From NCBI GenBank assembly GCA_963724605.1, contig CAVRVM010000006.1:15454-79453 (forward strand): DNA of 64,000 bases. Direction: 5' to 3'. The DNA comes from an uncultured beta proteobacterium (GTDB lineage: Bacteria; Pseudomonadota; Gammaproteobacteria; Burkholderiales; Burkholderiaceae_F). Below, piece after piece: positions 21,676 through 63,640 of this stretch (its first letter is position 1; every line of letters starts with the position of its first letter). A program made the position numbers and the translations under genes. The notes under the pieces were generated by a model. That model did no database searches, was not told the DNA's origin, and worked only from the letters and a program-made list of their open reading frames with translations.

Positions 21676-22096
21676 AGTCGTCGATCTCGCGGTCGGCCGC
21701 CTGGCTCTTCACTACGCGGAAGAGAACCCCGACGAGGTCGTCGCCGCCCTCGACGACAAGACCGAGGCTGTGATCCGCGAAGGCCGACCGCTGAGCCCAA
21801 CCAGTTGGGAGCCTGTTTTCATGGTCGCTCTATGACCGAGGAGTAGGCTGCTGCCAATTACTTTGACGGAGCCCCTACGCGCTGATTGACGCGTTGGTTG
21901 CCAAGTTGTTGTTTTGCTTGCATCCAGCATTCCGTTAACTTTGACGGACTGCGGAGCTGACGCACTTTGAACCGAAGCGCGTCCTCCTCGCCAGGCACGA
22001 CCGGACTTGCAGCCGACGAAACCGCCGCTACCGCCCGTTTCGGTTTCCGTCGAAGTCGAAGGCCGGCGCAGGCTCGACGGCTCATACAATGCCGGC

Positions 22097-23704
22097 ATGA
22101 CGCACGCCGGAACCGAAACCACGGCAGCGACATCGCCGTGGTCACCGCTCGCCAACCCGGTATTCCGGCTGCTGTGGATCACATGGCTGACGTCGAACAT
22201 CTGCATGTGGATGAACGACGTTGCGTCGGCGTGGTTGATGACCACGCTGACCACGTCGCCGGTGATGGTTGCGCTGGTGCAGTCGGCCTCGACGTTGCCG
22301 GTTTTCCTGCTCGGGCTGCCGAGCGGAGCGCTGGCCGATATCCTGAACCGCCGCCACTGGTTCATGTTCACGCAGTTCTGGGTGGCGACCAACGCGGTGC
22401 TGCTGAGCATCGCGCTGTTCGCCGGATGGATCTCCGCGCCGCTGCTGCTGGCGCTGACATTCGGCAACGGCATCGGACTGGCGATGCGCTGGCCGGTTTA
22501 CGCAGCGATCATTCCGGAACTGGTGACGCGGCGCGAACTGCCCAATGCCGTCGCGCTTAACGGTATCGCGATGAACACCTCGCGCGTGATCGGCCCGGTG
22601 CTGGCCGGCGCGCTGATCGCCAGCATCGGCACCGGGTTTGTGTATCTGCTGAATGCGGTGTTGTCGCTCGCGGCTGGCTTCGTGATCATGCGCTGGCGGT
22701 CGGAGACCAAGCCGAGCGTGCTGCCGGGCGAGCGCTTCATCGGCGCGATGCGGGTCGGCTTTCAATACGTCGCGCAATCGCACGCGATGCGTTCGGTCCT
22801 GCTGCGCATCGCGATCTTCTTCCTGCAGTCGACTGCGGTGTTCGCGCTGCTGCCGCTGGTGGCGAAGCGCATGCCCGGCGGCGGCGCCTGGACCTATACG
22901 GTGCTGCTGGCCTCGCTTGGCATCGGCGCGGTCGCGACCGCGTTCTCGCTGCCGCGGCTGCGCGTGCTGATCTCGCGACGGCGCCTGCTGCGCGACGGCA
23001 CAGTGCTGCAAGGTCTGGCGATGGTCGGACTGGGTTTCGCGCCGAACGTGTGGGCCGCCGTGCCCGCGATGATGCTGGCAGGCGCGGCGTGGCTCGCGGT
23101 GGTGAACACGCTGACGGTGACCTCGCAGCTGTCGCTGCCCGACTGGGTGCGTGCGCGTGGCATGTCGATCTACATGATGACGATGATGGGCTCGGCATCG
23201 GCCAGTGCGGCGCTGTGGGGGCAGGTGGCCAGCATGATCGACGTACCGTGGACTTATCTGGCAGCGACGCTTACCGGCCTTACGGCCGGCTTCCTCGCCA
23301 GTCGCCTGTATGCCGATCCCGAGAACGAGGTCGACCTGACTCCAGCGCGATTGCTGCAGGAGCCGATGCCCGCGTTTCCGGTCGAACATCAGATGGGACC
23401 TGTGATGGTGACGGTCGACTACCAGGTCGATCCGGCGCGCGCCGAGGAATTCGCGGCGGTGATGCGCGAAAGCCGGGCCAACCGATTGCAGAAGGGCGCG
23501 CTGTCGTGGGGGCTGTTTCATGACACGAACCGGCCCGGTCATTACATCGAATACTTTCTCGACGAATCATGGGCCGACCACTTGCGGCGGTTCGACCGCT
23601 ACACGGCGGCCGATGCCGAACTGCGCGAGCGCCGTTACTCGTTTCACGTCGGTGAAGAAGCGCCCAAGGTGTCGCGTTATATCGCCGAGCCGCTCGGCCG
23701 ATAG
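22097..23704 (+). CDS. MFS transporter (MFS_3/EntS-like) with a soluble C-terminal extension
   Basis: The ORF is 22007..23704, with a likely start at 'MTHAG'. It contains '[26 protein letters not shown]', about 12 predicted hydrophobic segments, and a C-terminal ~110 aa soluble tail. Confidence 0.8.
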
Positions 23705-25974: not shown

Positions 25975-26663
25975 GTGTTCATCGGTCACTTCGCACTGGG
26001 GTTTGCCGCCAAGCGCGTCGCGCCGCGGACATCGCTCGGCACACTGTTCCTCGCGGCGCAGTTCATGGACCTGATGTGGCCGACGCTGCTGTTGCTCGGC
26101 CTGGAGCGGGTAAAGATCGATCCGTCCTTCAGTGGGGCGCCACTCGATGTTCGTCCACTACCCGATCTCGCATAGTCTGCTGGCTGTCATCGGCCTGGGG
26201 CGCCGTGCTGGGGGCAGCGTACTTCGGGGTTACTCGCGACAGGCGCGGGGCCTGGGTGGTGGGGCTGCTCGTCGTCAGTCACTGGCTGCTCGATTTCATC
26301 GTGCACCGGCCCGACTTGCCGCTGCTGATTGCCGGCGGCCCGCGGCTGGGGCTGGGTCTGTGGAACTCGGCCGGTCGCAGAACTGGTACTCGAGCTCGCG
26401 TTGTTCGCGGGGTGCTTTGCCATGTATCTGCGCACGCCCGCTGGGAAAGCGCGGGCTTCAAACCATGGGTATTGGCTGCGATGCTGCTCGCCATACAGGT
26501 CGCCAATGCGGTCGGCCCACCCCCGCCATCAGTCGAGGCCATCGCCTGGGTCGGGCAGGCGCAGTGGCTGCTCGTCGCCGCCGGCTACTGGGCGGAACGG
26601 CCCGCGCGCGGGCGGCACGAGCCGCATGCGGGTACGCCGATCGCCGGCAGTCCGTTGGGGTAG
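25975..26663 (+). pseudogene. integral membrane protein, possibly a YdjM-like metal-dependent hydrolase (frameshifted)
   Basis: A GTG at 25975 opens 'VFIGHFALGFAAKRV...FMDLMWPTLLLLG'. Then come 'VHYPISHSLLAVIG', 'LLVVSHWLLDFIVHRPDLPL' and 'VLAAMLLAIQVANAVG' in other frames. The family assignment is tentative. Confidence 0.4.
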
Positions 26664-26667
26664 GTCG

Positions 26668-27919
26668 ATGACGAGCGCCGGCGTGATTCCGCCACCGGGC
26701 AGTGTGCTGCCGGGGCGTCTGGCCGACAACGTGCTGCATTTCGCGCGCGTGCTGCGCGATGCCGGGCTGCCCGTCGGCACTGACCGCATTCTGCTTGCCT
26801 ACGACGCGCTGCGTGCCGGCGGCATCGCCTCGCGCGCTGACTTCTATGCCGTGCTGTCGGCGTGCTTCCTGAGTCGTGGCGAGCACCGCACCCTGTTCGA
26901 CCAGGCCTTCCACATCTTCTGGAAGGACCCTGATCTGCTCGGCAAGATCATGCAACTGCTGATGCCACAGATGAAGCAGAAGGCCGAGTCGTCCGTGCCA
27001 CAGGAGAACCGACGCCTGGCCGACGCGATGTTCAAGGGCACGGTGCCGCAGCCGCCGCAGCCGCATGACAGCCAGCGTATCGAGATCGATGCGGCACTCT
27101 CGTGGACTGACCGCGAACAACTCCGCAAAGCGGACTTCGATACGATGAGTGCGGCGGAATGGGCAGCGGCAAAGCGGCTGCTTGCACAGTTCGATCCCTT
27201 CTTCGCCAGGCTGCCGACGCGCCGCGAGGCGCCAGCGGTGCGCGGCCATCGGGTCGACCTGCGCGCGATGCTGCGCGCGTCGGCGCGCCACGGCGGGGAG
27301 ATCAGCGCAGTCACATACCGCCGGCGCCGCACCCGGCCGGAGCCGCTGGTGGCGATCGTCGATATCTCGGGTTCCATGAGCCGGTATTCGCGCATGTTCC
27401 TGCACTTCCTGCATGCGCTGACCAGCGGGCGCGAGGCGGCCAACCATCGCGTGCATTCGTTCCTGTTCGGCACGCGCCTGACGCACATCACACGCCAGCT
27501 TGCGGCGCGCGACCCCGACGTGGCGGTGAACGCCGTCGTGCAGGCCGTGGAGGACTGGTCGGGCGGGACCCGCATCACGCAGGCGCTGCATGAGTTCAAC
27601 CTGAAATGGGCGCGGCGCGTGCTGTATGGCAATCCGACCGTGCTGCTGGTGACCGACGGCCTCGAGCACGGCGACACCCAGCAACTCAGCGCGAGGCCGA
27701 GCGGCTCGCGAAGTCCTGTCGGCGCCTGGTGTGGCTCAATCCGTTGCTGCGTTACGAGGGCTTCGAGCCGCGCGCCGGTGGCGTGCGCGCGCTGCTGCCG
27801 CACGTCGATGCATTCCTGCCCGTGCACAATCTGGCTACCCTCGAAGAGCTGACGGCGCAGCTGACAGCCGACCCGGCGCGATCGGCCGCGCTGCCCAGGA
27901 GAAACGACAGTGGAACTGA
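26668..27919 (+). pseudogene. VWA-domain CoxE-like protein (one frameshift; stop position approximate)
   Basis: 'LADNVLHFARVLRDAGLPVGTDRILLA' and the VWA MIDAS region 'LVAIVDISGSMSRYSRMFLHFLHAL...GGTRITQAL' are in ORF 26329..27852. The tail 'RRLVWLNPLLRYEGFEPRAGGVRALLPHVDAFLPVHNL' is in ORF 27606..28985. Confidence 0.8.
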
Positions 27920-32520: not shown

Positions 32521-32653
32521 CGAGGTCGTGTCATGCCGTCATGGTCGAGCGACCCATTGTCCGAGCGCGTGCCGGTGACGGGCTGACATCGATCAACGGG
32601 GGCGTGGTCCCCTCGAAGGGCGGGAGGGCAGACTGCCGTCTCGGTTTCAGCGC

Positions 32654-33349
32654 TCAGCGCGCTGCCGGCGCCTCCGGGTACAGGGCCCAGCGGGCGCCGG
32701 AGCGGAGTTCTTCCACACAGACTCCAGGCTCACAGCCGACGAGCCGGAACTGATCCAATTCAGCGGGGAACCGCACTGCGGTCGGCGAAGGTCCGGCGTT
32801 CTGGCGATATCGCGCCAGAGCTTCTGCGTTGGCGGGACCGGTTTCCCATGAGGCGACACCAGCTTTCATCGTCATCGCCGCGACGCGGATGTCGACGACT
32901 GCTACCGGCCAATAGTCCCGACGTTCGACAGTTCCGACGATGAAGACGTAACGCGGACGCGAGGCGGTGCCTTCCTTGCCAAGCAGCAGACCGGAAACGT
33001 CATAGCCGTCTCGCTCCGGGACGAACGCGTCGACATCGGTGGCCGCAAAAATGATCTGGCCGGGCCGCGCGACGGCCGGCGAACGCAGCGCGGGAAGCTG
33101 CGACAGCGCGGCAGGATCGCCGCCGCCGGCACTGACAACATGCTGCCCGAGCCGGGCCTGCCAGGTGGCGACGACTGCACTGCCGGTCGCGGCGGGCAAC
33201 TCGCGGTCTGCAGAGCCCGCGGCAGGAGGTTTGCCCTGCATGGCGCAGCCGCCCAGCGCACCTCCGAGCAGCAACACCGCTGCAAATGCCGCTGCGCGAT
33301 GGGCAGAGAACGTTTGCGCCGATGGCCGAGGGAGCAGTTGTCGGAGCAT
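32654..33349 (-). CDS. hypothetical lipoprotein
   Basis: The ATG at 33349 opens 'MLRQLL...AAVLLLGGALGGCAMQ', which contains a lipobox. The longer frame opened by an upstream in-frame TTG (33364) directly abuts the ankyrin gene stop at 33365-33367. Confidence 0.5.
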   Translation of the reverse strand: MLRQLLPRPSAQTFSAHRAAAFAAVLLLGGALGGCAMQGKPPAAGSADRELPAATGSAVVATWQARLGQHVVSAGGGDPAALSQLPALRSPAVARPGQIIFAATDVDAFVPERDGYDVSGLLLGKEGTASRPRYVFIVGTVERRDYWPVAVVDIRVAAMTMKAGVASWETGPANAEALARYRQNAGPSPTAVRFPAELDQFRLVGCEPGVCVEELRSGARWALYPEAPAAR

Positions 33350-33364
33350 GCGATACAACTCCAA

Positions 33365-35323
33365 TTACTCGGTCTTTCCCGCCGGGGTCTGACCCTCGGG
33401 GGGTGTCACCGCAGTGTCGCCCGGCGGCGCCGACGCGCGATAGGCCACAGCAGCATCGGCCGGCGCCTTGCCGGCGAGCGGTGGAGAGGAGGGCGCGCGC
33501 ACGTCCAACGACATCTGTTCCGCCGTGCTGGCGTGCCCCTGGCTGCCGGCCTCGTCGCGCGGAGTCGCGCCGGAATTGTTGCGGGCATTCGCGTCGGCGC
33601 CGCGCGCCATCAGCATGGACACGACCTCCTTGTTGCCCCGGCGCGCCGCCAGATGCAGCGCTGTATTGCCGCCGTCGTCAACAATCAGCGGATTCGCGCC
33701 CTCCCGAAGCAGCCGATTGGTCAGCACGACGTTGCCGCGCATTGCGGCAACGTGGAGGGCTGTCGTTCCGAACATATCGCGTGAGTTCGGATTGACCCCG
33801 GCCTGGAGCAGCACGATGGCGACATCCATCCTGCCGCTCGCGACGGCCAGCATCAACGGCGTCACGCCATACTGTGCGGCACGATCAGGATTCGCGCCGC
33901 GATCGAGGAGTTCGCGGACGACCGTCACGCTACCGGCCCGCGTGGCGGCATGCAGTGGTGTCTCACCGTCCACATCGGCGCGGTCAATCTCGCTGCGTGT
34001 CGCGGCCAGCACCTGCACCCGTTCCGCGTCGCCATCACGCGCGGCCCACCACAGCGGCGTGCGGCCGAGCGCATCGGGGCCGGGCGCCGCTGCGCTGCCG
34101 GCGACGTCCCGCGTGCCTGTCGCGCCCGGCGACGGCCCGGCAGCAGCCACCTTCACTTTGTCGTCGCTCGCCGGCTTCGCGCTCGCCGTACCCTTCGGGA
34201 AGCAAGTGTCGGCGATGGTCACCGGATGCGTCGGATTGCTCTCGTGGCCGTAATTGCTGCCGTAGTAGGTGGCGAGTTCCTGTTCGATCGCCACGAACTG
34301 CTCACGTCCGCGGGGCTGTCCGTGTGGATCGCGATACCACTCCATGGCCAATGGGCATCGTTCCCGGACCAGCGTACGGATACGGCCACCGGTATAGCCC
34401 ACATACTTGTTGGGGTTGAGCACCTCGTTCCAGTGGGGCGTGATGAAGGCAACGAAGAAGTCGGAGTCGGGCTCAATGCGTACGCGCCAGTACGGACCGT
34501 CCCGCATCAGCATTGACGGCAGTTCGCGCGATCCGATCCGCACCGACTCGGTCAGGTTGCGATAGAACATCAGGCCGGCATAGTCGGCTGCCAGGTCGCC
34601 GTTGGAATGGATGCCTGTGGTCCACATGCCGAGCACTCCGTCCTCGGACGTCAGCGGATTGCGCGACGTCGACGCGATGGCCGACTTGATGGCTTCGTTC
34701 TCCGGCAGGCCGCGCTTGATCCGGACCTCGTACTTGCTGTGGTAGATCCGGCCGATGTTGATGAAGTGAATGATCTTGTCGGTGCCGACGACAACCCCGC
34801 CGGCGCTCACGCTGCCCGCGCGGAAGAACGTCCGCACGACCTTGGTCAGGTCGATCACGAGGAGAGGATCGTCATAGATCGACACCGTTGGCCGATACAT
34901 CGTGACTAAACCCGGGTACTGGGACTGCACGGAATCCGACGCCAGGGTGGCATCGAGCAACTCATTGGCAGGGATCGCCGCGAAGATGTACTGCCACACC
35001 TTGCCGGCGATGAAGTCCGCCGATTGAAGCTCGTCGATCTGCGAACGGGACTCTCCGCCTTCAATGGCCTGCGCGATCGCGGCGTTGGTGTCGGCCACTG
35101 CGCCGACGATGGAGTCGTACACGATCTTCGTGAAATATGGGCCGAGATCGGCGAAGTCGCGTCCCGCCGGCAAGGTGTACTGCTCGGATTCGTGCGCGAT
35201 CGCGGGCGACGCCGCGATCAGCAGCAGGCAGATGCCGAGCGTTGCGACCGTCCAGCGGCTGCACTGGCGCAGCGCCGGGCGCATCACTGAAGCGAATCCA
35301 TTGTCGGGCGGCGAGAGCTGCAT
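33365..35323 (-). CDS. secreted protein: unrecognised ~380 aa N-terminal domain plus 5-6 ankyrin repeats
   Basis: This is an intact 652 aa ORF. The signal peptide is 'TLGICLLLIAASPAIAHE' (possible start at 35284). The ankyrin repeats are 'GRTPLWWAARDGD', 'GETPLHAATRAGS', 'GVTPLMLAVASGR', 'GTTALHVAAMRGN' and 'GNTALHLAARRGN'. Confidence 0.8.
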   Translation of the reverse strand: MQLSPPDNGFASVMRPALRQCSRWTVATLGICLLLIAASPAIAHESEQYTLPAGRDFADLGPYFTKIVYDSIVGAVADTNAAIAQAIEGGESRSQIDELQSADFIAGKVWQYIFAAIPANELLDATLASDSVQSQYPGLVTMYRPTVSIYDDPLLVIDLTKVVRTFFRAGSVSAGGVVVGTDKIIHFINIGRIYHSKYEVRIKRGLPENEAIKSAIASTSRNPLTSEDGVLGMWTTGIHSNGDLAADYAGLMFYRNLTESVRIGSRELPSMLMRDGPYWRVRIEPDSDFFVAFITPHWNEVLNPNKYVGYTGGRIRTLVRERCPLAMEWYRDPHGQPRGREQFVAIEQELATYYGSNYGHESNPTHPVTIADTCFPKGTASAKPASDDKVKVAAAGPSPGATGTRDVAGSAAAPGPDALGRTPLWWAARDGDAERVQVLAATRSEIDRADVDGETPLHAATRAGSVTVVRELLDRGANPDRAAQYGVTPLMLAVASGRMDVAIVLLQAGVNPNSRDMFGTTALHVAAMRGNVVLTNRLLREGANPLIVDDGGNTALHLAARRGNKEVVSMLMARGADANARNNSGATPRDEAGSQGHASTAEQMSLDVRAPSSPPLAGKAPADAAVAYRASAPPGDTAVTPPEGQTPAGKTE

Positions 35324-35441
35324 GGTGACGATGTAAGCCGATTCGCTCTTGCGGGTTCACGCACATCGCGCGACTGACCCGAGCAAGTCAAGTGCCCGCG
35401 CGAATCGTGATTCTACCGATCGGCGCGATGTTCAGTGCATT

Positions 35442-36693
35442 TCAGGCCTTTGTCGCCCGCTTCGCCCAGGCTTTCCAGCGGCGGTGCACCCACCACCATT
35501 GTTCGGGCCGGCGCACGATCATGCGTTCCAGCGCGCGGTTGTAGGCGCGGGAATTGAGGCGGATGGCTTCGTTGGTATCGGCATGCTCGACGGGCATGAT
35601 AGGAGCTTCGAAGCGCAGCACATGCTGGCCGTCGGGCTCCCGCCAGCTGGAAGCCGGTACCACCGGCGCTCCGGTGGCCAGTGCGATCACGGCCAGGCTG
35701 CGGAAGGTGCCGGCGGGATGGCCGAAGAACTCGACCAGCACGCCGTCCTTGCGGTTGGCATGCTGGTCGAAGGGGAAGACGACGAGGTCGCCGGCGCCCA
35801 GCCGGTCGAGGATGGCGTCGAGGCCGCCACGTTTCGGGCAGCACTCCGAAGCCCGCCTTGCGGAAGCGGCGCGTCACCAGGCGATCGAGCCATTCGGGCC
35901 GGATCGGGCGTCGCACGAAGTGGAAGCGGCCCTGCGCTTGCGGGAAACTGCGCCAGTCCGGCGGCGGTTGCCACTTCAAAGTTGCCGAAGTGGCCGGTCA
36001 GGATCAGCACGCCCTTGCCTTGCGCATGCGCCGCGAGCAGCGCGTCGAGGTTCTCCACCCGCACCATCGCCGATGCGCCGCGCCTGGCACAGCCACGGAA
36101 ACCATAAGAACTCCCACAACAGGCGGCCGAGGTGACCGTAATGTGCCTGCGCCAGTCGTTCGATCTCGGCGGCGTCGACCGCCTCGCCATAGACGCGCCG
36201 CAGGTTGTCGAGCACCACCTCGCGGCGGAACGGCAGCAGACGATAGAGCAACCGCGCGGCGCGCGACGGCGCGGCGCGGTCGGCCTGCGCCAATGCGACG
36301 GCGATGGCCGTCGACCGGTCGTGCGTCAGCGACAGGTTGATCGTGCGCAGGCGGTTGCGGCCCAGCGCGATCTGCGCGGCTTCGCTGAGTTCGACCGTCG
36401 GTGCGCCGTAGCCGTCGCGCGCGACCGAAAAGTCGATGGGCCCGACGGCGCCGAGAGCCGCTTCGCGCGGGAAGAGCTTCGTACAGGCTTCCTTGGCGGC
36501 GAAGCGGGCGGCCAGGCTGGCGGCGCGGCCGGGACCGTCGCCTGCGTCGTGCAACTCCTGTGCGAGAAGAGTTTGCGCAGCTCTCCCGACGGCGTTTCGG
36601 CGAGCAGCCGTTCGATGCGCGCGATCTCACCGTGTCGACCCCGCAGCGCGTCGTGCCATCGCGGCTGCCGGCGGCTCCGGCAGGGTGGTTCAC
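35442..36693 (-). pseudogene. AcpS-type 4'-phosphopantetheinyl transferase joined in frame to an LpxL/HtrB-family (lipid A-type) acyltransferase (frameshifted elsewhere)
   Basis: The PPTase part is 'GVDTVEIARIERLL', readable around 36640, then 'LAARFAAKEACTKLF...INLSLTHDRSTAIAVALAQ'. ORF 35976..36554 then runs straight into 'LLYRLLPFRREVVLDNLRRVYG'. The acyltransferase motifs are 'VLILTGHFGNFE' and the C-terminal 'RRPEQWWWVHRRWK' (ORF 35442..35741). Confidence 0.75.
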
Positions 36694-37970
36694 GTGCGCG
36701 GCAGCGCGCAGCAGGCAGGCGGCATTGGTGCCGCCGAAGCCCCGCGAGAGCAGCAACGCCACGTCACTGCGCGGGGCGCGGTGTCCGCGCGAAGCATTCA
36801 GCGGGCCGCACGCGGGTCGATGTCGGCCAGTGGCGCGATGCCCGGCACCGATGCTGGCGCGCAGCGCGGCGATCGCCAGCGACGGCTTCGATCAGCCCGG
36901 CTGCGGCCAGCAGGTGACCAAAGGCCCATTTGAAGCCGGTGACCGGCGGCATGTCGGCGCCGAACACGCGCGCCAGCGCGCGCGCTTCCGACACGTCGGA
37001 GTTCGGCGTGCCGTTGCCATGCGCGACGATCATGCCCACGTCGGCGCGGCGCGATGCGCGGCCAGCAGCGCGGCTTCGATCGCGCGCACCAGACCGTCGC
37101 CGTCGTCGCGCACCGGCAGCAGGCCAAGACCGTCGCTGCCGCTGCCCGCGCCCAGCACTTCGCCGAGCACCGCGGCGCCGCGCTCGCGCGCGGCCGATTC
37201 GGTTTCCAGCACCAGGGCCGCCGCGCCTTCGCCCATCGCGCTGCCGTCATGGCGCGCGTCGAAAGGGCGCAGCGCTTCGCGCGACGAGCAGCCCCATGCT
37301 GTTGGTAGTAGAGCAGCGTCTGCGGCTCGATCGGCGCTTCGTGCGCGGCCACGACGGCGCGCGATGCATTCTCCGGCGCGCAGCGCATCGGCCGCCTCGG
37401 CCAGCGCCAGCAATCCGCTGATGCTGTGGTTGGTGATGCAGGCGTTCGGGCCCTTGAGCCCGTGGCGGATGCCGATATGGCCGAGCACGTTGTTGGGCAG
37501 CGACCGCAGCAGCCACATCGGGTTGACCGTGGCCGACAGTTCCTGGCCGAAGATCTTGAGGTCGCCTTGCCGGCTGCGATAAGCGGGAGGTAGTCGTACT
37601 GGTTGCCGAAGGTGCCGCCGCCCGATCCAACGAAGACGCCGGTCTGTCGGCAAAGCGTGTGGCTGCTTCCTCGTCGAGCGTGTCGCGCCATTGCGTCAAG
37701 CCGCTGCCTCGATGGCGCGGTCGGCCGCATACAGGCCGAACACGTCGGTGCGGCGGATGAACTTCAGCAGCTTGCGGTCGCCGGTCAGCGCGCCGGCGTT
37801 GTAGTCGGCAACCTCGGCGGCGATCTTGACTGGCCAGGCCGCGGCGTCCCACTGCGTGATCGGGCCGATGGCCGAACGGCCGTGCGACGATGGCGTGCAG
37901 GATGTCGTCGGGCGAGCGACCGGCGCCGCAGATCGCGCCGCCGCCGGTGATGACGATGCGCGTGCGCCAT
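36690..37970 (-). pseudogene. beta-ketoacyl synthase-like protein with Ser at the catalytic Cys position (frameshifted)
   Basis: 'RIVITGGGAICGAG' is readable after the ATG at 37970. 'GLKGPNACITNHSISGLLALAEA' (ORF 37030..37653) aligns by hand to GPxxxxxTACxSG, with Ser (codon 37423-37425) at the Cys position. The His motifs 'VAHGNGTPNSD' and 'FKWAFGHLLAAAG' are retained (ORF 36764..37039). Confidence 0.75.
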
Positions 37971-37975
37971 GATCG

Positions 37976-39301
37976 TCAGGATCCGCGACCGACGAGCGCG
38001 TCGGCGTCGGCGGGGTGACGGAATGCCAGACAACTGTTGGAGCCGCCGAAGCCGAGCGAATTCGACAGCGCCACGCGCATGCGGCGCTCGCGCGGTGCGT
38101 CGCGCACGACGTCGATGTCGCAGTCGGGATCGAGTTCGCGCAGATTGGCGTTGACCGGCAGCGTGCCGTGGTGGATCGCCAGGGCGCACACCGCGGCTTC
38201 GACCGCGCCGGCGGCTGCGATCAGATGGCCCATCACGCTCTTCGTCGAACTGACTGCCACCTTGCGCCAGTCTTCGCCGAACACCGCCTTGACCGCAGCG
38301 CATTCGCTGCGGTCGTTCATCGGCGTCGACGTGCCATGCGCGTTCAGGTAGTCGACGTCGGCCAGCGCGGCGCCGGCATCGGCGATGGCCTGGCGCATGG
38401 CCTGGATCGGCCCGTCGCCGGAGGGGTGCGAATCGGTGATGCGATAGCTCGACAGCGAGTTGCCGTCGCCAGCCAGTTCCGCGTAGATGCGCGCGCCGCG
38501 GCGCCGTGCCGCCTCCCACTCCTCGAGCACCAGGAAGCCCGCGCCCTCGCCGAGCACGAAGCCGTTGCGGGTGGCGTCGAACGGGCGGCTCGCGCGCTCC
38601 GGCGTGTCGTTGTCCGGCGACACCGCGTTGAGCAGGCAGAAGCCGGCCAGGCCGACCGGGTTGATCATCGAATCGAAGCCGCCTGCGAGCACGCGATCGG
38701 CCACGCCGCGGCGGATCAGCTTCAGCGCCGTGCCGACCGCCTGGCCGCCGGAGGCGCAGGCGGTGTGCACCGAACTCGCGTAGCCGCGGATGCCGAACAC
38801 CCGCATCAGCAGCGCGACGCCCGCGCTCGACTGGCTGCGGCAGAAGACCAGCGGGTCGGCCGCCGAGCCCTGCGCTCGACAGCAGACGATCCGGGAGCTC
38901 GCCCGCCGGTGCCGCGTCGTGCTGCACCTGGGCGAGCTCATCGTAGGTCACGCCCATCATGCCGGTGCCGACCACGCAGCCCCAGCGCGTCGGCCGTGTC
39001 CGGTGTCGGGCGGATGCCGGCGTCGGCAAACGCCTGGCGCGGCCGCCACCAGCGCGAAGCGGTGCGACGCGGTTGGCGAACTTCAGCAGCTTGCGATCGC
39101 CGGCCGGCCTGTTCGACCGCAGCGGCTGCAGGCCCTTGACCTCGGCCGCGATGCGCACCGGAAAGCCGCTGGCATCGAAGCTCGCGATGCGGGCGGCTCC
39201 GCTGCGCGCCGGCCAGCAGGGCCGCCCAGGTTGCTGGCGACATCGTTGCCGACCGGCGTGACGAGTCCCAGCCCGGTGATCGCGACGCGAGGCCGTGTCA
39301 T
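37976..39301 (-). pseudogene. beta-ketoacyl-ACP synthase II-like (FabF family) with a complete Cys-His-His triad (frameshifted in the N-terminal third)
   Basis: 'MTRPRVAITGLGLVTPVGNDV' starts at 39301. ORF 37976..38941 carries 'VHTACASGGQAVG', 'YLNAHGTSTPMND', 'STKSVMGHLIAAAGAVEA' and 'SNSLGFGGSNSCLAF'. Confidence 0.85.
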
Positions 39302-40165
39302 GGCTGCACAGCACTCCAGCCGGCCGACTCGATGCGCGCAGTGGCGACCGCCTTGCCTTCGTTGCGCGCCCGAGCTTCATCCGCGCGCGTTGCGCGTCGG
39401 CATCGAGCAGCTCGACTTCGAGCTCCAGCGTGCGGTCCCGGGTGCGGTGAAGGAACGGATCTTCACGTGGCTGACTGTTCGGCGCCAGCGAGCGGCGGCT
39501 GCAGCCGCAGGCATCGGCCTCGCGGCGCCAGCTGCACCGGCGAGTGCCAGCAAGCGCATCCATCAGCAGCGTGCCGGGAAATACCGGCCGGCGCGGAAAG
39601 TGATCGTCGAAGTAGGGCGCGCCCGACTGGAGCGGAACCTGCAGCATCGCGCCGAAAGCGCTTGCCCGGCGCGTGTTCCTGGATCGTGCGAGCTGCGGCG
39701 CGGGACGCCGGTGAAACGCCCGGGCGCGGCACCGGCCGTGCAGCAGCGTGTCGAAGTCGGCTCGTACCGCCTCCGGCGCATCGAATTCTTCCATCGGCAG
39801 CATCGGCCCGACGCAGTCGACCAGTTCGAGCGCACAGCGGCCGTCGATCGAAGGCCGGCCGCTGTAGGCCACCGCCTCGGGATCGCAACGCTCGATGTCG
39901 GCTTCGAGCGTGAGCGCTGCACCCGGGTGCGGCGGCGTGGTGATAGCGCGCTTTCGGCGGCCAGCCCGGCGACCGGTCGCCAGGCAAAGTCCAACTGGGC
40001 CATCGCCGACCAGGCGGCGAGCTGGCCCACGGCCTCGGCCATCAGCGAGGCGGGAAAGCGGGTCGACGGCGGCGGCACGGTGTAGATGACCCTCGACGCG
40101 GCCGCCGGGCGGCGCGTGATGCGGTCGACGAATGAGAAGGCGCGAAAGCGCTCGCTCATGGTCAC
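39298..40165 (-). pseudogene. FabZ/FabA-family (hotdog) 3-hydroxyacyl-ACP dehydratase, ~289 aa, probably double hotdog (frameshifted)
   Basis: The N-terminus 'FRAFSFVDRI' is in ORF 39563..40165. The C-terminal hotdog with the His motif 'APYFDDHFPRRPVFPGTLLMDA' is in the 37785..39872 frame. Its stop TGA overlaps the KS start (ccATGAca at 39298-39301). Confidence 0.7.
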
Positions 40166-40182
40166 CCGCCCGGCGGCGTGGG

Positions 40183-40629
40183 TCAGAGGCTCTGGCCGTT
40201 CAGGCCGTGGGCTGCGCCGCGCGCTGCGCGCGGATCAACGACCTTGCAGAAGGTCTCGGGCGTGAACAGGCGCGGAACATCCGCGGCCTTCAACGGCGTC
40301 TTGATGCGCTCGGCCGGAACTTCGCTGAGAAATTCGCGCAGCCGAGCGAGGCCGGCCTCGGTAACAATGCCTTTGCTCTCGAACTCGGCTTCCGGCAAGC
40401 GGTCCGCGCGCATCCTCGACGATCTTGCCGCGCGGGATCTTCACGCCGAAGCCGCGCTCGAGGCGGAACACCAGGTCGAGGAAGTCGATCGACTCGGCGT
40501 CCAGCCCTTCGATCAGCGAAACCTTGGGCTTGACGTCATCGACGTCGCAACCGAGCGCGTCGGCGATGATCTGGGCCACCTTCGGAAATACGGCATCGAT
40601 ATCTGCTGGCTGATTGCCTGTTCTGCCAT
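40183..40629 (-). pseudogene. acyl carrier protein with a ~70 aa C-terminal extension (frameshifted)
   Basis: An RBS 'gggagag' precedes the ATG at 40629, which opens 'MAEQAISQQI'. The carrier core is 'VAQIIADALGCDVDDVKPKVSLIEGLDAESIDFLDLVFRLERGFGVKIP' (ORF 40235..40579). The extension is 'LPEAEFESKGIVTEAGLARLREFLSEVPAERIKTPLKAADVPRLFTPETFCKVV' (ORF 40183..40413). Confidence 0.7.
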
Positions 40630-40639
40630 TATCTCTCCC

Positions 40640-41411
40640 TCACTCCATCTTGAAGCCGCCGTCGACGTGCAGCACCTCGCCGGTGATGTAGTCGGCAAAG
40701 CGCGAAGCGAGGAACCAGACGGCATGGGCCACGTCCTCGGGCCTGCCCATAGCGGCGCAGCAGGATGCGTGCCTTGACTCGTCGCCGGCCAGATCGCGCA
40801 CCTGCTGCGACATTTCGGTTTCGATCACGCCGGGGGCCACGCAGTTTACCGTGATCTTGCGCGAGGCCAGCTCTACCGCCATGGCGCGGGTGAATGCGTT
40901 GATCGCGCCCTTGCTGGCGGCGTAGTTCGACTGGCCGCGGCCGCCCTTTTCGGCCGCCACCGAGCTGAGGTTGACGATGCGGCCGGAGCGCTTGGAGATC
41001 ATGTGCGGCACGACCGCGCGCGTCACGTTGAACACGCCGCCGATGTTCGTGTCGAGCACGGTGCGGATGTCCGTGTCCTCAGCAGCGCCAGCAGGTTGTC
41101 GCGCACGACGCCGGCGTTGTTGACCAGTACATCGATGCGATTGCGGCTGCTCGATAACAGCGTCGACCGCCGCCGCGACGGCGGCTGCATCGGCAATGTC
41201 GACCTGCATTGCCTCGGCTTTGCCACCGCGTCTTTGCAACCGCCTCGACCACCTCACGCGCGGCCTCGGCGTTACCGCGATAGAAGAAGACGACGTCGAC
41301 GCCGTCGCCGGCGAAGCGCTCGACGATCGCACGGCCGATGCCGCGGCTGCCGCCGGTGACCAGCGCCACCTTGCCTGCCAGTCCGGAATCAATACTGTGT
41401 GTGTCGGTCAT
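40640..41411 (-). pseudogene. fabG: 3-oxoacyl-ACP reductase (frameshifted)
   Basis: 'LAGKVALVTGGSRGIGRAIVERFAGDG' starts at 41411. 'VLVNNAGV' and 'IVNLSSVAAEKGGRGQSNYAASKGAINAFTRAMAVELASRKITVNCVAPGVIETEM...ITGEVLHVDGG' are in ORF 40640..41392. Confidence 0.85.
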
Positions 41412-42206
41412 GAGGTCAGCCCGAGATCGCGAAGCCGCCGTCGACGAACAGCGTGTGGCCGTTGATCATCGCGGCCTCCGGCAGGCACAGCAGGTAGACG
41501 GCGCCGGCGACGTCCTCGGGCGTCAGCACCGGCCCAGCCGGCGTACGCGCCTTGAAGTTGGCGACCAGTTCTTCGCGGTTCGGAAAGTAGGCAGAGCGCG
41601 TCGGTCTCGACGACGCCCGCGCTCACCGCATTGACGCGAATGCCGCGCGGGTCCGAGCTCCTGCGCCAGTGAGCGCACCAGCGATTCGAGTGCCGCCTTC
41701 GAGGCACCGATGAACGCGTAGTTGGGCATCGCGCGCAGCGATCCCAGGCTCGACATCGCGATGATGCGGCCGCCGTCCTTCATCAGCGGCGCGCGCGCTG
41801 CGCCAGCAGATTCAGCGCGAAGGCGTTGGTCTCCATGCACCAGCGCCAGTGTTTCAGCGTCATGTCGAGCGCCGGCTTCAGCACGCCGCTGGCGGCATTG
41901 CTGACGACGATGTCGAGGTGGATCGAAGTGCTTGCGTCAGCTCGGTGAACATCTCGTCGACGCTGTCCGGCAGGCCGACGCTGGCCTTGAGCGCGAGGGC
42001 ACGGCGGCCGAGCGCACGAAATTCCTCGCACAGCGCTTCAGCCTCTTCGTGGCTGTTGTAGTAGTTGACGACGACGTCGCAGCCCGCATGCGCCAGCTTG
42101 CGCACGATCGCGCGTCCGATGCCGCGCGCGGCGCCGGTGACGAGCGCCATCTTGCCGGCCAGTGGCAGCGCGGCGGTGCCGGGCGAATCCTTGGAGGCTG
42201 TGTGCA
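41408..42206 (-). pseudogene. SDR-family enoyl-ACP reductase, FabL-like (frameshifted)
   Basis: 'KMALVTGAARGIGRAIVRKLAHAGCDVVVNYYNSHEEAEAL', 'VVSNAASGVLKPALDMTLKHWRWCMETNAFAL', 'IIAMSSLGSLRAMPNYAFIGASKAALESLVRSLAQELGP' and 'IRVNAVSAGVVETDAL' are collinear with B. subtilis FabL as I remember it. The stop overlaps the fabG start (tcATGA at 41408-41413). Confidence 0.7.
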
Positions 42207-42437
42207 TCGGGAGCGGGGCGGAAGCCGGAGAGGGTGGGACAGGTCTGTGCAGGGTCAGTTCGGCGCGGCGCAATTGTATTGCGTTGACACCGCGGCGTCG
42301 GGACGCTCCAATCGGCGACCAATGCGATTGGAGGACGACGACTACGGGCTCAGTGGTCGCACGAGGCCTCGCATCGCAGCGCCAGCGGGCGCACGATGCG
42401 GCCCGAGGGTTTCCGATGCGGGCATGCCAAGGCAGTG

Positions 42438-43404
42438 ATGAACCGATCCGAGTTGCAGATTCCGGCAGGACGGCGAGACGTCGCGGGAACGAGCGGCGTT
42501 GCTGCTCGCCTTCGCGCTGATCCTCGTCTGGGGCATCAATTTCAGCGTGCAGAAGGCAGTGTTCGCGGCGGTGACGCCCGGCGGGTTCCTGTTTGTCCGC
42601 TACTTGATCATGCCGGTCTGCGCGGTGGCGTTGCTGTGGCAGCGCTTCGGCACGGACTGGCCGCGCTTGCCGCGCGGCGAGTGGCTGGCGCTGCTGCGGC
42701 TCGGACTGCTGGGCCACCTGATGCACGTCGGGCTCGTGACCTTCGGCATCGACTGGTCGACCGCGTTCTCGAGCTCGCTGATCCTGGCCTGCGGGCCGGT
42801 ATTCACGCTGCTGTTGCTGCGCGGGCTCGGTGTCGAGCGACTGACGCACGCGCAGATCGCCGGCGTCGGGGTCGCCTGCGTCGGTGTGCTGATATTCCTG
42901 TCCGACAAGCTGCTCGGCGCGCAATGGCGGCGCGAGCGGCGGTGATCTGGTGCTGCTGGTCGCGGCATTCTTCTTCTCCGCGTATACCGTGGCGGCGAAA
43001 CCCCTGATCGAGCGCCACGGCGGCGTCTGGTGATGGCCTATGCGACGCTGCTCGGTTCCGTGCCGGTGCTGGTCCTCAGCCTGCCCGCCGGCCTGCGCGT
43101 CGACTGGGCGAGCGTGCCGCTCGCGATCTGGGCCGGATTGTTCTGGGCGGTCGTGCTGTCGGCTTTCGTTGGCTGGATCGTCTGGGGCTGGGTCAATGCG
43201 GTGCGCGGCGTCGCGCGCACCGCGCCGCTGATGTACCTGATGCCGCCGGTGGCAGGGCTGGTCGCGTGGTGGGTGACCGGCGAAGGCTACGGTGCGATCA
43301 AACTGCTGGGCGCTGCGGTCACGCTGATCGGCGTGGCGGTCGCGCAGTTCGCACGGCGTGGCGATCCGGCGCGCAGCGTCGAAAGCGTGGGCGTCGTCGA
43401 CTGA
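42438..43404 (+). pseudogene. EamA/DMT-family transporter (frameshifted)
   Basis: 'LLLAFALILVWGINFSVQKAVF...' (ORF 42499..42945), 'LVLLVAAFFFSAYTVAAKPLIERHGG', and ORF 43030..43404 ('LFWAVVLSAFVGWIVWGWVNAVRGVARTAPLMYLMPPVAGLVAW') together make two EamA repeats. Confidence 0.75.
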
Positions 43405-43421
43405 CTCCCGCGCGGAGTCTC

Positions 43422-44387
43422 CTAGGATCCGGCTGAAACTCCGTTTTCCTTCACGACCTTGCTCCAGCGCTCGACTTCCTTCTGCATGAAGGCCTTGAAC
43501 TCGGCAGGGCCCTGGCCGGTGATGGTCATGCCCTGCGCGGCGAGGCGCTCTGCGACTGCCGGATCCTTCAAGGCCTTCTGCAATTCGGCGTTCATGCGGT
43601 CGACGATGGCTGCCGGGGTCTTGGCGGGTGCAATCACGCCCCAGTAAGCGAGCGCCTCGAAGTTCTTGATGCCGCTTTCGGCCAGCGTCGGCGTGTCCGG
43701 CAGGCTCGCATTTCGCTTCGCGCCGGTCACCGCCATCGGTCGGACCGTGCCCGCCTTCACGTGCGGCATCACCAGAAACACGGTGCCGATGCCCAACGGA
43801 GTGTGTCCGGCGACCACGTCATTCATCAGAGGGCCGCCGCCCCGGTAGGGGATGTGCGTCCAGGACCAGCCGTCCTGCTTGCCGGCCTGGATCATCGCGA
43901 GGTGCCCGAGGCTGCCGGTGCCGATCGAGCCGATCGTGATGCCCTTGATGCTGCGCGCATCGGCGTTGACGTCGGCGAACTTCATGTACTTCGACTTGCT
44001 GGAGGCGACCAGCGCCATCGGCGAAGTGCCGATCAGCGTCACGTGCTCCAGGCCCTTGATTGTGTCGTACGAGATGTTGGGGATCAGGCTCGCGTTGGTG
44101 CCGTGCGTATCGAACACAACGCCGAAGGTGTAGCCGTCAGGCGCGGCCTTGGCGACCGCCGCGGTACCGATCGAGCCCGAGGCACCGCCGATATTCTCGA
44201 CGATCACGCTCTGCCCAAGTTGCTTCGTCAACTGCTGTGCCAGCACGCGCGCGACCTGGTCGACCGAACCGCCGGGCGGAAAGACGGCGATCAGCCGGAT
44301 CGCCTTGTCGGGCCAGGTCTGGGCGCCGGCGACGCCGGAGATGAAGGCCAGGGCCATCGCGGCCAGGGCGCGAGAAAGCGGAAGCAT
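43422..44387 (-). CDS. Bug-family (TctC-like) tripartite tricarboxylate transporter substrate-binding protein
   Basis: The ATG at 44387 opens 'MLPLSRALAAMALAFISGVAGAQTWPDKAIRLIAVFPPGGSVDQVARVLAQ...PYRGGGPLMNDVVAGH...'. This is the classic Bug signature. Confidence 0.9.
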   Translation of the reverse strand: MLPLSRALAAMALAFISGVAGAQTWPDKAIRLIAVFPPGGSVDQVARVLAQQLTKQLGQSVIVENIGGASGSIGTAAVAKAAPDGYTFGVVFDTHGTNASLIPNISYDTIKGLEHVTLIGTSPMALVASSKSKYMKFADVNADARSIKGITIGSIGTGSLGHLAMIQAGKQDGWSWTHIPYRGGGPLMNDVVAGHTPLGIGTVFLVMPHVKAGTVRPMAVTGAKRNASLPDTPTLAESGIKNFEALAYWGVIAPAKTPAAIVDRMNAELQKALKDPAVAERLAAQGMTITGQGPAEFKAFMQKEVERWSKVVKENGVSAGS

Positions 44388-63287: not shown

Positions 63288-63421
63288 GTTGATCTCCTCG
63301 CAACGGAACCAACTATAGGCGGACGGCGCCGCGGGGCCGCGCAACCTACGTGCTCGACGCCGCGGTCGGCGCGGCAGGCCCTCGCCGGACTTGGTATCCT
63401 TCGCATTCGCTGATGTAGGCC

Positions 63422-63640
63422 GAAGCGGGAGAGTGCATCCGGTGCTGGATGCCGCCGAAGGCGCAATCTCACCCGGAATCGCTCAGGTTCAAGAACCGCT
63501 TCGTCACCGGCGACTCTGGAGAGACCGCGGCTGCAAGGCGTGCGGCGCCGAAGGGGCAGGGGCGCAAGCCCACGAACTCTCAGGCAAAAGGACAGAGGGG
63601 TGCAGCCCGATTGCGGTCGGCCTGCGCCCTTTTTTCTTTG
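63422..63640 (+). ncRNA. tandem glycine riboswitch with a putative terminator-type expression platform
   Basis: Aptamer 1 is 63422-63502: P1 is GAAGCGG/CCGCTTC, the cores are 'GGGAGAG' and 'CCGAAGGCGCAA', and it ends with 'CTCAGG'. Aptamer 2 is 63514-63597: P1 is CTCTG/CAGAG, with 'GGAGAGA', 'GCCGAAGGGGCA' and 'CTCAGGCAAAAGGAC'. It is followed by GGCCTGCGCCC plus a T-run (63619-63640). It lies directly upstream of gcvT. Confidence 0.85.

Follow-up and report, generated by a model that had tools for sequence, protein, structure and literature searches.

A conserved seven-gene type II fatty acid synthase operon of uncultured Burkholderiales with a fused phosphopantetheinyl transferase–acyltransferase and a candidate role in lipid A acylation

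Lipid A acylation affects the stiffness of the outer membrane, resistance to antimicrobial peptides and innate immune recognition. To our knowledge, the alphaproteobacterial AcpXL–LpxXL system is the only well studied private fatty acid synthase (FAS) that feeds a special chain to lipid A. The rhizobial cluster acpXL–fabZXL–fabF2XL–fabF1XL–adhA2XL–lpxXL encodes such a system for very-long-chain fatty acids (VLCFAs) of lipid A (PMC11901934). Elsewhere, pairs of a ketosynthase (KS) and an inactive KS in specialised FAS clusters form heterodimers that decarboxylate malonyl groups on the acyl carrier protein (malonyl-ACP); the anammox pair amxFabF2/amxFabFmut is of this kind, resembles a KS/chain-length factor (CLF) heterodimer and prefers its own ACP (bioRxiv 10.64898/2026.05.19.726425). 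Aryl polyene (APE) clusters also contain a KS and KS-like pair together with an LPLAT-type transferase (PMC8253772). Here, we describe an operon on the minus strand of a 64 kb stretch of contig CAVRVM010000006.1 (the whole stretch is referred to below as the window), positions 35442–42207. The concept of a dedicated ACP combined with an LpxL-type transferase has a well known precedent, of which this operon is an apparently undescribed and differently built version. We read it as a private type II FAS operon, the last gene of which would both activate the carrier and unload the chain, with lipid A as the acceptor, and give this reading a probability of roughly 0.55.

Open reading frame (ORF) listing of 35.3–43.1 kb yields only fragments on the minus strand. 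The G+C content of the window is about 65% and rises to as much as 71% in the 36–40 kb stretch. In Pfam these raw fragments match adh_short_C2 (twice), PP-binding, FabA, ketoacyl-synt N and C (twice each), ACPS and Lip_A_acyltrans. Used as a homology query, the KS fragment 37976–38941 retrieves thousands of proteins of 437–445 amino acids (aa) with 84–94% identity; for two of these relatives the locus is intact and sits on a long contig. In the intact relative L001 the genes encode, in order, a short-chain dehydrogenase/reductase (SDR) of 260 aa, a second SDR of 254 aa, an ACP of 142 aa, a FabA/ApeI-like dehydratase of 280 aa, a KS of 439 aa, a KS-like protein of 424 aa and an ACPS–Lip_A_acyltrans protein of 413 aa. 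The seven L001 proteins were aligned to the window by a frameshift-aware dynamic programme, which recovers all of them at 42207–35442 with 82–91% identity (67% for the dehydratase). The reconstructed proteins cover nearly the whole of their Pfam profiles, the match of the dehydratase being to its C-terminal FabA-like half only. The features are as follows, with the frame changes needed to restore each gene.

41416–42207, minus strand: SDR1, FabL-type enoyl-ACP reductase (ER), ~262 aa, about five frame changes.
40640–41411, minus strand: SDR2, FabG-type 3-ketoacyl-ACP reductase (KR), ~254 aa, about five frame changes.
40200–40629, minus strand: specialised ACP, ~142 aa, about three frame changes.
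39298–40159, minus strand: tandem-hotdog 3-hydroxyacyl-ACP dehydratase, ~280 aa, about ten inferred frame changes.
37976–39301, minus strand: KS1, FabF-like ketosynthase, 439 aa, about eight frame changes, all in the first third.
36690–37970, minus strand: KS2, KS-like partner, 424 aa, about 13 frame changes.
35442–36693, minus strand: fusion of an AcpS-type phosphopantetheinyl transferase (PPTase) and an LpxL/PatA-fold acyltransferase, 413 aa, three to six frame changes.
~36289–36660, minus strand: N-terminal AcpS-type PPTase domain of the fusion.
~35479–36276, minus strand: C-terminal LpxL/PatA-fold acyltransferase domain of the fusion, with HFGNFE and PEQWWWVHRRWK.

A preliminary description made from the letters of the window had placed eight functions head-to-tail on the minus strand. 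All eight were found in that order, both by Pfam and by the frameshift-aware reconstruction, and each predicted domain is matched in the reconstructed proteins. They are encoded by seven genes rather than eight: the PPTase and the acyltransferase share one ORF, which is 413 aa long in the intact relatives and the frame of which is continuous also in the window ORF 35976–36554. The span is as described, except that it ends at 42207, one base beyond the 42206 given. Of three reported ATGA/GTGA overlaps, those at 39298–39301 and 36690–36693 correspond to 4 nt overlaps in the intact relative, while ATGA at 41408–41411 is the start of SDR2 only; the TGA of SDR1 ends 4 nt upstream and there is no overlap. 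The lengths of 149 aa for the ACP and ~289 aa for the dehydratase are corrected to ~142 and ~280 aa. The quoted motifs are present, namely TACASG, HGTST and GH in KS1, NHSISG with both histidines in KS2, and HFGNFE and PEQWWWVHRRWK in the transferase. The idea of a self-contained elongation system also stands: the operon has genes for a dedicated carrier, for a domain that activates it and for a transferase of the LpxL family. A promoter and terminator scan of 35000–42700 gave nothing exceeding shuffled expectation, and an Rfam scan of the window gave no match near the operon.

The operon is strongly conserved and real. When 185,579 species genomes were scanned for the fusion protein, at least 487 relatives came up. 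Of these, the best 80 are all from metagenome-assembled genomes (MAGs) and belong to Burkholderiaceae, Rubrivivax, Casimicrobiaceae and other Burkholderiales, together with one bin labelled Verrucomicrobiia. Nearly all thus carry Burkholderiales or Betaproteobacteria-type labels, in line with the host suspected at the outset; the hosts are uncultured soil and sludge Burkholderiales. Among 85 loci, 65 are complete and share a single arrangement of the seven genes, another 18 are cut by a contig end and are consistent with it, and two have broken KS matches. This order is far beyond chance. The flanks of the operon vary between lineages, so that the seven genes behave as a self-contained module. 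Catalytic residues are kept across 64–85 relatives, depending on the protein, and gene content, fusion architecture, gene order and sequence affinities are all established by these comparisons.

In metagenomic collections there are about 8000 relatives of the KS, 3150 of the fusion and 6000 of the ACP. When 1.84 billion cluster representatives were searched with the two-domain fusion, only a few clusters at 50% identity were found to have this architecture; after them come stand-alone LpxL-like proteins of ~290 aa with 35–49% identity. A tblastn search of a plasmid collection (72,556 records) with the fusion gave stand-alone LpxL-type genes only and no two-domain relative. The contigs of three distant fusion relatives (P0380, P0374 and P0370) are short or have an unrelated context and add no new information. 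No description of the operon, of the fusion or of AcpXL in Burkholderiales was found in the literature, and none of the curated NCBIfam models claims any of the operon proteins except FabL, which claims SDR1; the operon is apparently undescribed.

Two further observations concern the distribution of the operon. Two contigs of the MAG CAWGEB01 (bin MFD02134.bin.3.237), L024 and L041, each carry a complete operon with an ICMT gene upstream and an LpxO gene downstream, which points either to a genuine duplication or to a bin that mixes two strains. The G+C content of the operon exceeds that of its flanks by 1.3–4.3 percentage points in every lineage checked (the window, L001, L004, L006, L054 and L083); this richness is a property of the operon and not a sign of recent transfer into this genome.

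For comparison with described systems we used the APE cluster of Escherichia coli CFT073 (L086), E. coli housekeeping genes and the Sinorhizobium meliloti acpXL–lpxXL cluster (L088), which was found through the plasmid search. SDR1 is 88% identical to the intact L001 protein and passes the NCBIfam FabL equivalog model NF005975 (347 bits for the corrected window protein and 346 for L001, with a cut-off of 328). Its Tyr-x6-Lys enoyl-reductase signature is kept in 63–64 of 64 relatives, and SDR1 is accordingly classified as a FabL-type enoyl reductase. SDR2 has Pfam adh_short and KR matches, an invariant YxxxK and 44% identity to E. coli FabG; on the FabG equivalog model the L001 protein reaches 271 bits, and it clears the cut-off for the FabG subfamily (247 versus 222).

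The ACP matches Pfam PP-binding, with the serine in an invariant LDAESID, and consists of an ACP core followed by a strongly conserved C-terminal extension of ~70 aa. There are more than 6000 relatives, and the best 120 are all 140–153 aa long (all but three 140–144 aa) and 84–99% identical. In bit scores S. meliloti AcpXL (54, with 45% identity over the core) precedes AcpP (38.5) and ApeF (38), although the margins are small. The best PDB matches by sequence and by fold are to the specialised ACP of Rhodopseudomonas palustris (2kw2/3lmo). The AlphaFold2 model (predicted local distance difference test score, pLDDT, of 76) shows an ACP core with four extra helices. Only the core has PDB matches, the top one being the R. 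palustris specialised AcpXL-type ACP at a weak E-value, while the extra helices have none. The operon ACP can thus be ranked with the AcpXL-type specialised ACPs, though its C-terminal extension is not homologous. Taken together, the bulky conserved extension and the KR and ER encoded in the operon itself suggest an insulation of the carrier from the housekeeping FAS enzymes.

The dehydratase has FabA/ApeI-like Pfam matches. Its C-terminal half carries the FabZ-type histidine motif DHFPRRPVFPG...D (DHFPxxPVFPG), and its N-terminal half a conserved MAEAVGQ with the glutamate that in FabZ dimers is supplied by the partner subunit. The histidine and the Asp/Glu are conserved among the relatives. 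The presence of the histidine motif in one half and of the glutamate motif in the other suggests that each polypeptide forms one complete active site. FabZXL is the best match (52 bits), followed by E. coli FabZ (42) and ApeI (28).

KS1 has a Cys-His-His-Lys active site, of which the triad is invariant in the family, and is 91% identical to L001 KS1. Its best PDB match is Thermus thermophilus FabF (364 bits). In the reference set it is closest to FabF (278 bits, 42% identity), followed by FabF1XL (234), ApeR (176) and ApeO (134), and has no ApeC match. KS2 matches Pfam ketoacyl-synt N and C, and a serine replaces the nucleophilic cysteine in 70 of 76 relatives, while both histidines are invariant in all 76 and the lysine is present in all four KS2 sequences sampled. 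It scores 129 bits with ApeR, 124 with FabF, 111 with FabF1XL and 39 with FabF2XL, and forms a clade of its own apart from FabF2XL and ApeC. By the adjacency of their genes and the Cys-to-Ser exchange, KS1 and KS2 are a candidate KS/CLF pair; the retained His-His-Lys is unlike classical CLFs. Judged by its Ser-His-His-Lys site, KS2 retains the residues used for malonyl decarboxylation and is thus predicted to be able to decarboxylate but not to condense. An orthologous FabF1XL/FabF2XL pair is not what is found here, KS1 being nearer to FabF and KS2 scoring so low with FabF2XL.

The fusion protein is a single ORF in all intact relatives. In Pfam it matches ACPS (PF01648, 37.6 bits) and Lip_A_acyltrans (PF03279, 133 bits, profile positions 37–294 of 295). 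The AcpS domain of L001 passes the TIGR00556 domain cut-off (47.2 versus 45.35), and its motifs GxD and KEAxxK are kept in 79–84 of 85 relatives. The transferase motif HX4E, here HFGN[FW]E, is invariant in the 85 relatives. Two domains are seen in the AlphaFold2 model (pLDDT 79). The N-terminal one superposes on Vibrio cholerae AcpS with a template-modelling (TM) score of 0.83, and PPT domains of yeast FAS are among its structural matches. By hidden Markov model (HMM), motifs and predicted fold this domain is an AcpS-type PPTase, with a predicted activity on the cognate ACP. The HMM, the HX4(D/E) motif and the modelled fold likewise place the C-terminal domain in the LpxL/LpxM/PatA family PF03279. 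It falls below every specific NCBIfam cut-off for LpxL, LpxM, LpxP and PatA (at best 117 bits versus 248), so no subfamily is assigned. In pairwise comparison it scores 93 bits with a Jannaschia LPLAT family member, 74 with Paracoccus LpxL, 70 with LpxP, 67 with LpxXL and 61 with LpxL; LpxM and ApeD gave no match in this search. The hydrophobic N-terminal segment of LpxL, LpxP, LpxXL and ApeD is absent from the fusion, and a membrane-anchored transferase of the LpxXL type is therefore not what the operon encodes.

These assignments can be combined into a model. The AcpS-type domain of the fusion would turn the extended ACP of the operon into its holo form. Malonyl loading would be performed by the housekeeping FabD, which is invoked because the operon encodes no transacylase. 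KS1 and KS2 may act as a KS/CLF-like heterodimer in priming and elongation, with KS2 decarboxylating malonyl-ACP and shaping the pocket that would set the length of the acyl chain. The FabG-type KR, the tandem-hotdog dehydratase and the FabL-type ER would then reduce the chain fully in each round to give a saturated acyl-ACP. Finally, the LpxL/PatA-fold domain would take the chain straight from the ACP and esterify a membrane lipid at the cytoplasmic face; direct off-loading by this domain is proposed because there is no thioesterase in the operon. The most likely acceptor is lipid A, which would receive a secondary acyl chain as it does from LpxXL with acyl-AcpXL. The heterodimer, the self-priming, the full reduction, the chain length and the acceptor are what we infer from the gene set, and the label 'very long' for the chain would be borrowed from the rhizobial system by analogy.

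The flanking ORFs of all loci were clustered. The choice of acceptor leans on a sister clade of loci, which we define by a fusion protein less than 75% identical to that of L001. Here, the seven genes lie within a longer co-directional cluster (for example L054:116–12226; L017–L081). The upstream genes encode first a membrane methyltransferase of the ICMT/PEMT type, for which LmtA, the methyltransferase of Leptospira lipid A, is a faint match (23 bits), then a lipoprotein that contains a GHSQGG motif, a protein of ~440 aa with a faint Condensation/PapA_C resemblance and a second hydrolase paralogue. The paralogous lipoproteins are alpha/beta-hydrolase-like, with GHSQGG as a serine-hydrolase motif, and belong to no Pfam family. 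PDB and Pfam searches with the hydrolase-like and Condensation-like proteins gave faint hints and no significant family match. Directly downstream of the operon is an LpxO-like gene, the product of which matches the NCBIfam LpxO model end to end. Of 56 sister-clade loci, 26 have this gene on the strand of the operon and no more than 1.5 kb away, usually at a distance of 50–200 nt. LpxO hydroxylates a secondary acyl chain of lipid A, and lipid A is favoured as the acceptor because of this adjacency, which is the best available support, by association, for a chain that ends there. None of the sister-clade accessory genes is found within the 64 kb window.

Less probably, the same machinery would serve another envelope lipid or glycolipid, such as a lysophospholipid or an ornithine or other amino lipid, with a peripheral transferase like PatA or ApeD. 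The fusion has no transmembrane-like segment, and Foldseek places PatA (E-value 5e-13, TM score 0.77–0.79) above LpxM (9e-11, 0.63) for the transferase domain, while by sequence the two tie. The pair of hydrolase-like lipoproteins, the Condensation/PapA-like protein and the ICMT/PEMT methyltransferase of the sister clade would suit a more elaborate lipid, and hydroxylases of the LpxO family also act on ornithine lipids (OlsC). The adjacent hydroxylase, however, scores far better on the LpxO than on the OlsC model (438–448 versus ~115 bits), and the pairwise matches of the transferase are to late acyltransferases of lipid A (LpxP, LpxL, LpxXL and Paracoccus LpxL) and not to ApeD. The affinities of the ACP and the dehydratase also point to the lipid A VLCFA system.

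A number of points weigh against lipid A as the acceptor and against the functional model as a whole. In the clade to which the window belongs, all 18 loci lack an LpxO gene next to the operon. The 26 loci that have one are phylogenetically related and could go back to one evolutionary event, and the LpxO-like protein stays just under the NCBIfam cut-off (448 versus 500). KS2 is not orthologous to FabF2XL, given its low score and a Ser-His-His-Lys site in place of Glu-Ser-His-Gly. For the transferase domain, LpxXL is no nearer a relative than other members of the LpxL family are; it has no hydrophobic segment at the N-terminus of the kind seen in LpxL, LpxP and LpxXL, and its predicted fold is slightly nearer to PatA, a glycolipid acyltransferase that uses acyl-CoA, than to LpxM. 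The frame changes in the operon, moreover, reach about six times the density found in most flanking genes, and they lie outside homopolymers.

A more far-reaching proposal, which we put forward tentatively and at somewhat below even odds, is that of an orthogonal, self-activating FAS in which the fusion of the PPTase to the off-loader and the unique 70-aa ACP extension would serve a dedicated chain on lipid A. The operon would then be the betaproteobacterial counterpart of the VLCFA system, assembled from different parts and extended in the sister clade by LpxO, the methyltransferase and the lipoprotein hydrolases.

About 50 frame changes in 6.8 kb are needed inside the operon (SDR1 five, SDR2 five, ACP three, dehydratase ten, KS1 eight, KS2 13 and fusion six), of which part of those in the dehydratase may be alignment noise. 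All are single-base insertions or deletions. They are patchy and densest in the G+C-richest stretch. There is no enrichment in homopolymers (mean longest run 2.42 versus 2.32 for random positions), so that these are not classic homopolymer slips. Reference-free tracking of G+C at third codon positions was too coarse to locate the errors. Among the flanking genes, EamA needs three changes, VWA-CoxE two and hyp223 four, the ankyrin gene described below none or one, and TctC, GYD, CMD and COXG none. Unrelated genes are broken at 25975–27916 and at 42395–43404 (hyp223, VWA/CoxE and EamA) while their neighbours are clean, and the assembly errors are thus patchy along the contig.

Read literally, such a copy would be a decaying cluster of pseudogenes with real and very recent frame changes. 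This is improbable. The density of the changes, the near-clean state of the adjacent 1.96 kb ankyrin gene and of TctC, and the absence of clustering in homopolymers speak for it. The ~2200 restored codons, however, contain no in-frame stop, whereas neutral decay with 50 indels should have added substitutions by the hundred and numerous stops. In identity to L001 the copy is on a par with intact orthologues, and divergence is mostly at third codon positions, with ratios of nonsynonymous to synonymous codons of 0.29–0.60 (1.26 for the dehydratase) that agree with the values for L004 and L006, two orthologues with intact frames. Indels of the same kind separate L001 and L002, two assemblies of one population that are 97.6% identical and differ by 32 indels of 1–2 nt, several of which sit in genes called shorter in L002. 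The lack of stops, the third-position divergence, the broken unrelated genes and the L001/L002 indels taken together indicate that the frame changes are most likely assembly or sequencing errors and not gene decay, and hence that the source organism probably has a functional operon. A locus that looks 'dead' in a noisy assembly can thus be recovered by frameshift-aware comparison with intact relatives.

That the operon is a reduced APE, xanthomonadin or other type II polyketide pigment cluster making a lipid-attached polyene is very improbable: the Pfam label of the dehydratase is 'ApeI-like', a KS and KS-like pair and an LPLAT-type transferase are known from APE clusters too (PMC8253772), and SDR2 reaches 248 bits on the flexirubin FlxB model (under its cut-off), but the operon of all complete loci includes a FabL-type ER, which passes its equivalog cut-off, KS1 is nearer to FabF and FabF1XL than to ApeR and ApeO, the transferase has no ApeD match, and ApeI matches the dehydratase weakly. 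Moreover, the window has no gene for an adenylating starter enzyme, a thioesterase or a glycosyltransferase and no LolA-like or MMPL gene, nor do related loci conserve one. The preliminary description had come to the same view. ApeH, J, K, L, M and N have no match in the window and none among the large ORFs or the conserved flanks; outside the operon, the window's large ORFs are those of an ordinary chromosome.

Two genes lie directly downstream of the operon in the window.

33365–35323, minus strand: secreted protein of 652 aa with an N-terminal domain of ~400 aa and C-terminal ankyrin repeats, with a match to Ank only.
~32631–33274, minus strand: protein of ~214 aa with a lipoprotein-like N-terminus.

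The same pair, with an ankyrin protein of 620–650 aa, is directly downstream on the operon's strand in L001–L006, L008, L009 and L013 (L001:13928–16534), and in L023 and L049 it is upstream of the operon and divergent. Neither protein has a family match except Ank. Its occurrence beside the operon in two arrangements hints at a functional link, and the pair is a possible, if uncertain, accessory.

Three observations concern other parts of the window. TctC directly abuts EamA at 43404–43425, while in L001, L002 and partly in L004 genes for CBS, DsbH-thioredoxin, pyrophosphatase and HMG-CoA reductase lie between the two (L001:1469–6036), so that ~4.5 kb present in L001 is absent here. A glycine riboswitch aptamer is found on the plus strand at 63416–63508 (Rfam RF00504, 63 bits versus a gathering score of 32). 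An 85 nt tRNA-Ile(GAT) called by ARAGORN at 22200–22284 (plus strand) lies inside the full-length MFS_3 ORF 21971–23704 and is probably a false positive.

If the proposed function is correct, the operon would be a second, differently built solution to the supply of a special lipid A chain, in bacteria that are abundant in soil and activated sludge. For enzymology and engineering, two features are of interest: the PPTase fused to an off-loading acyltransferase, and the ACP, the large and conserved extension of which probably shields the pathway from the housekeeping FAS.

Compared with the rhizobial XL system, the parallel drawn in the preliminary description holds in part: the ACP is nearest to AcpXL and the catalytic half of the dehydratase to FabZXL, but KS2 is not a FabF2XL orthologue and the transferase is not LpxXL-specific. 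Both systems have a dedicated ACP with a C-terminal extension (of the reference proteins, AcpXL is the best match of the operon ACP, with 45% identity over the core), a FabZ-type dehydratase of their own, an active KS with a KS-like partner that lacks the cysteine, and an LpxL-family transferase as the last gene with no thioesterase, so that in both the chain should leave the carrier by transfer only. In contrast to the rhizobial system, the operon has its own KR and ER, a PPTase fused to the transferase and a dehydratase that is a fused tandem hotdog, and its ACP extension of ~70 aa is unrelated to that of AcpXL. It has no Zn alcohol dehydrogenase; a homologue of AdhA2XL was found neither in the window (tblastn) nor among the conserved neighbours. 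The KS precedes the KS-like gene while the rhizobial order is reversed, KS2 keeps His-His-Lys where FabF2XL has Glu-Ser-His-Gly, and the transferase, without an N-terminal hydrophobic helix, is not specifically LpxXL-like. The hosts are Burkholderiales and not Alphaproteobacteria. On sequence grounds, the operon shares the logic of the XL system and part of the ancestry of its ACP and dehydratase, yet falls outside that system in several of its defining features.

With APE clusters the operon shares a FAS-like type II machinery: a KS and a partner that may here serve as chain-length factor, together with a KR, hotdog dehydratases, carriers of their own and an acyltransferase of the LPLAT type that would attach the product to a lipid. 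It differs in having an enoyl reductase and in lacking an aryl-starter ligase, a thioesterase, a glycosyltransferase, a methyltransferase and LolA/MMPL export genes, and its KS1, ACP, dehydratase and transferase are all nearer to FAS, XL or LpxL proteins than to those of the Ape set. A reduced APE or xanthomonadin cluster was rejected as an identity for the locus, given the FabL-type ER, the FabF-like KS1, the lack of an ApeD match and the lack of accessory genes. A housekeeping FAS was rejected as well: there are no FabD, FabH or Acc genes, KS1 is 42% identical to FabF and the ACP is atypical.

The anammox ladderane pair amxFabF2/amxFabFmut is likewise formed by two adjacent FabF homologues in a specialised lipid cluster, one of them without the catalytic cysteine. 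amxFabFmut has lost the whole triad, however, whereas KS2 keeps both histidines and the lysine, and the ladderane cluster has radical SAM enzymes and a different product. The transferase shares the HX4(D/E) motif, the overall fold and PF03279 with LpxL, LpxM, LpxP and PatA, and carries an N-terminal AcpS domain instead of the membrane helix. Enzymes of the LpxL type use acyl-ACP as the donor and PatA uses acyl-CoA. Finally, an AcpS-type PPTase built into the synthase that it activates is also found in fungal type I FAS; there, the PPT domain is part of a 2.6 MDa megasynthase, whereas in the operon described here the PPTase has the off-loading acyltransferase of a dissociated system as its sole fusion partner.

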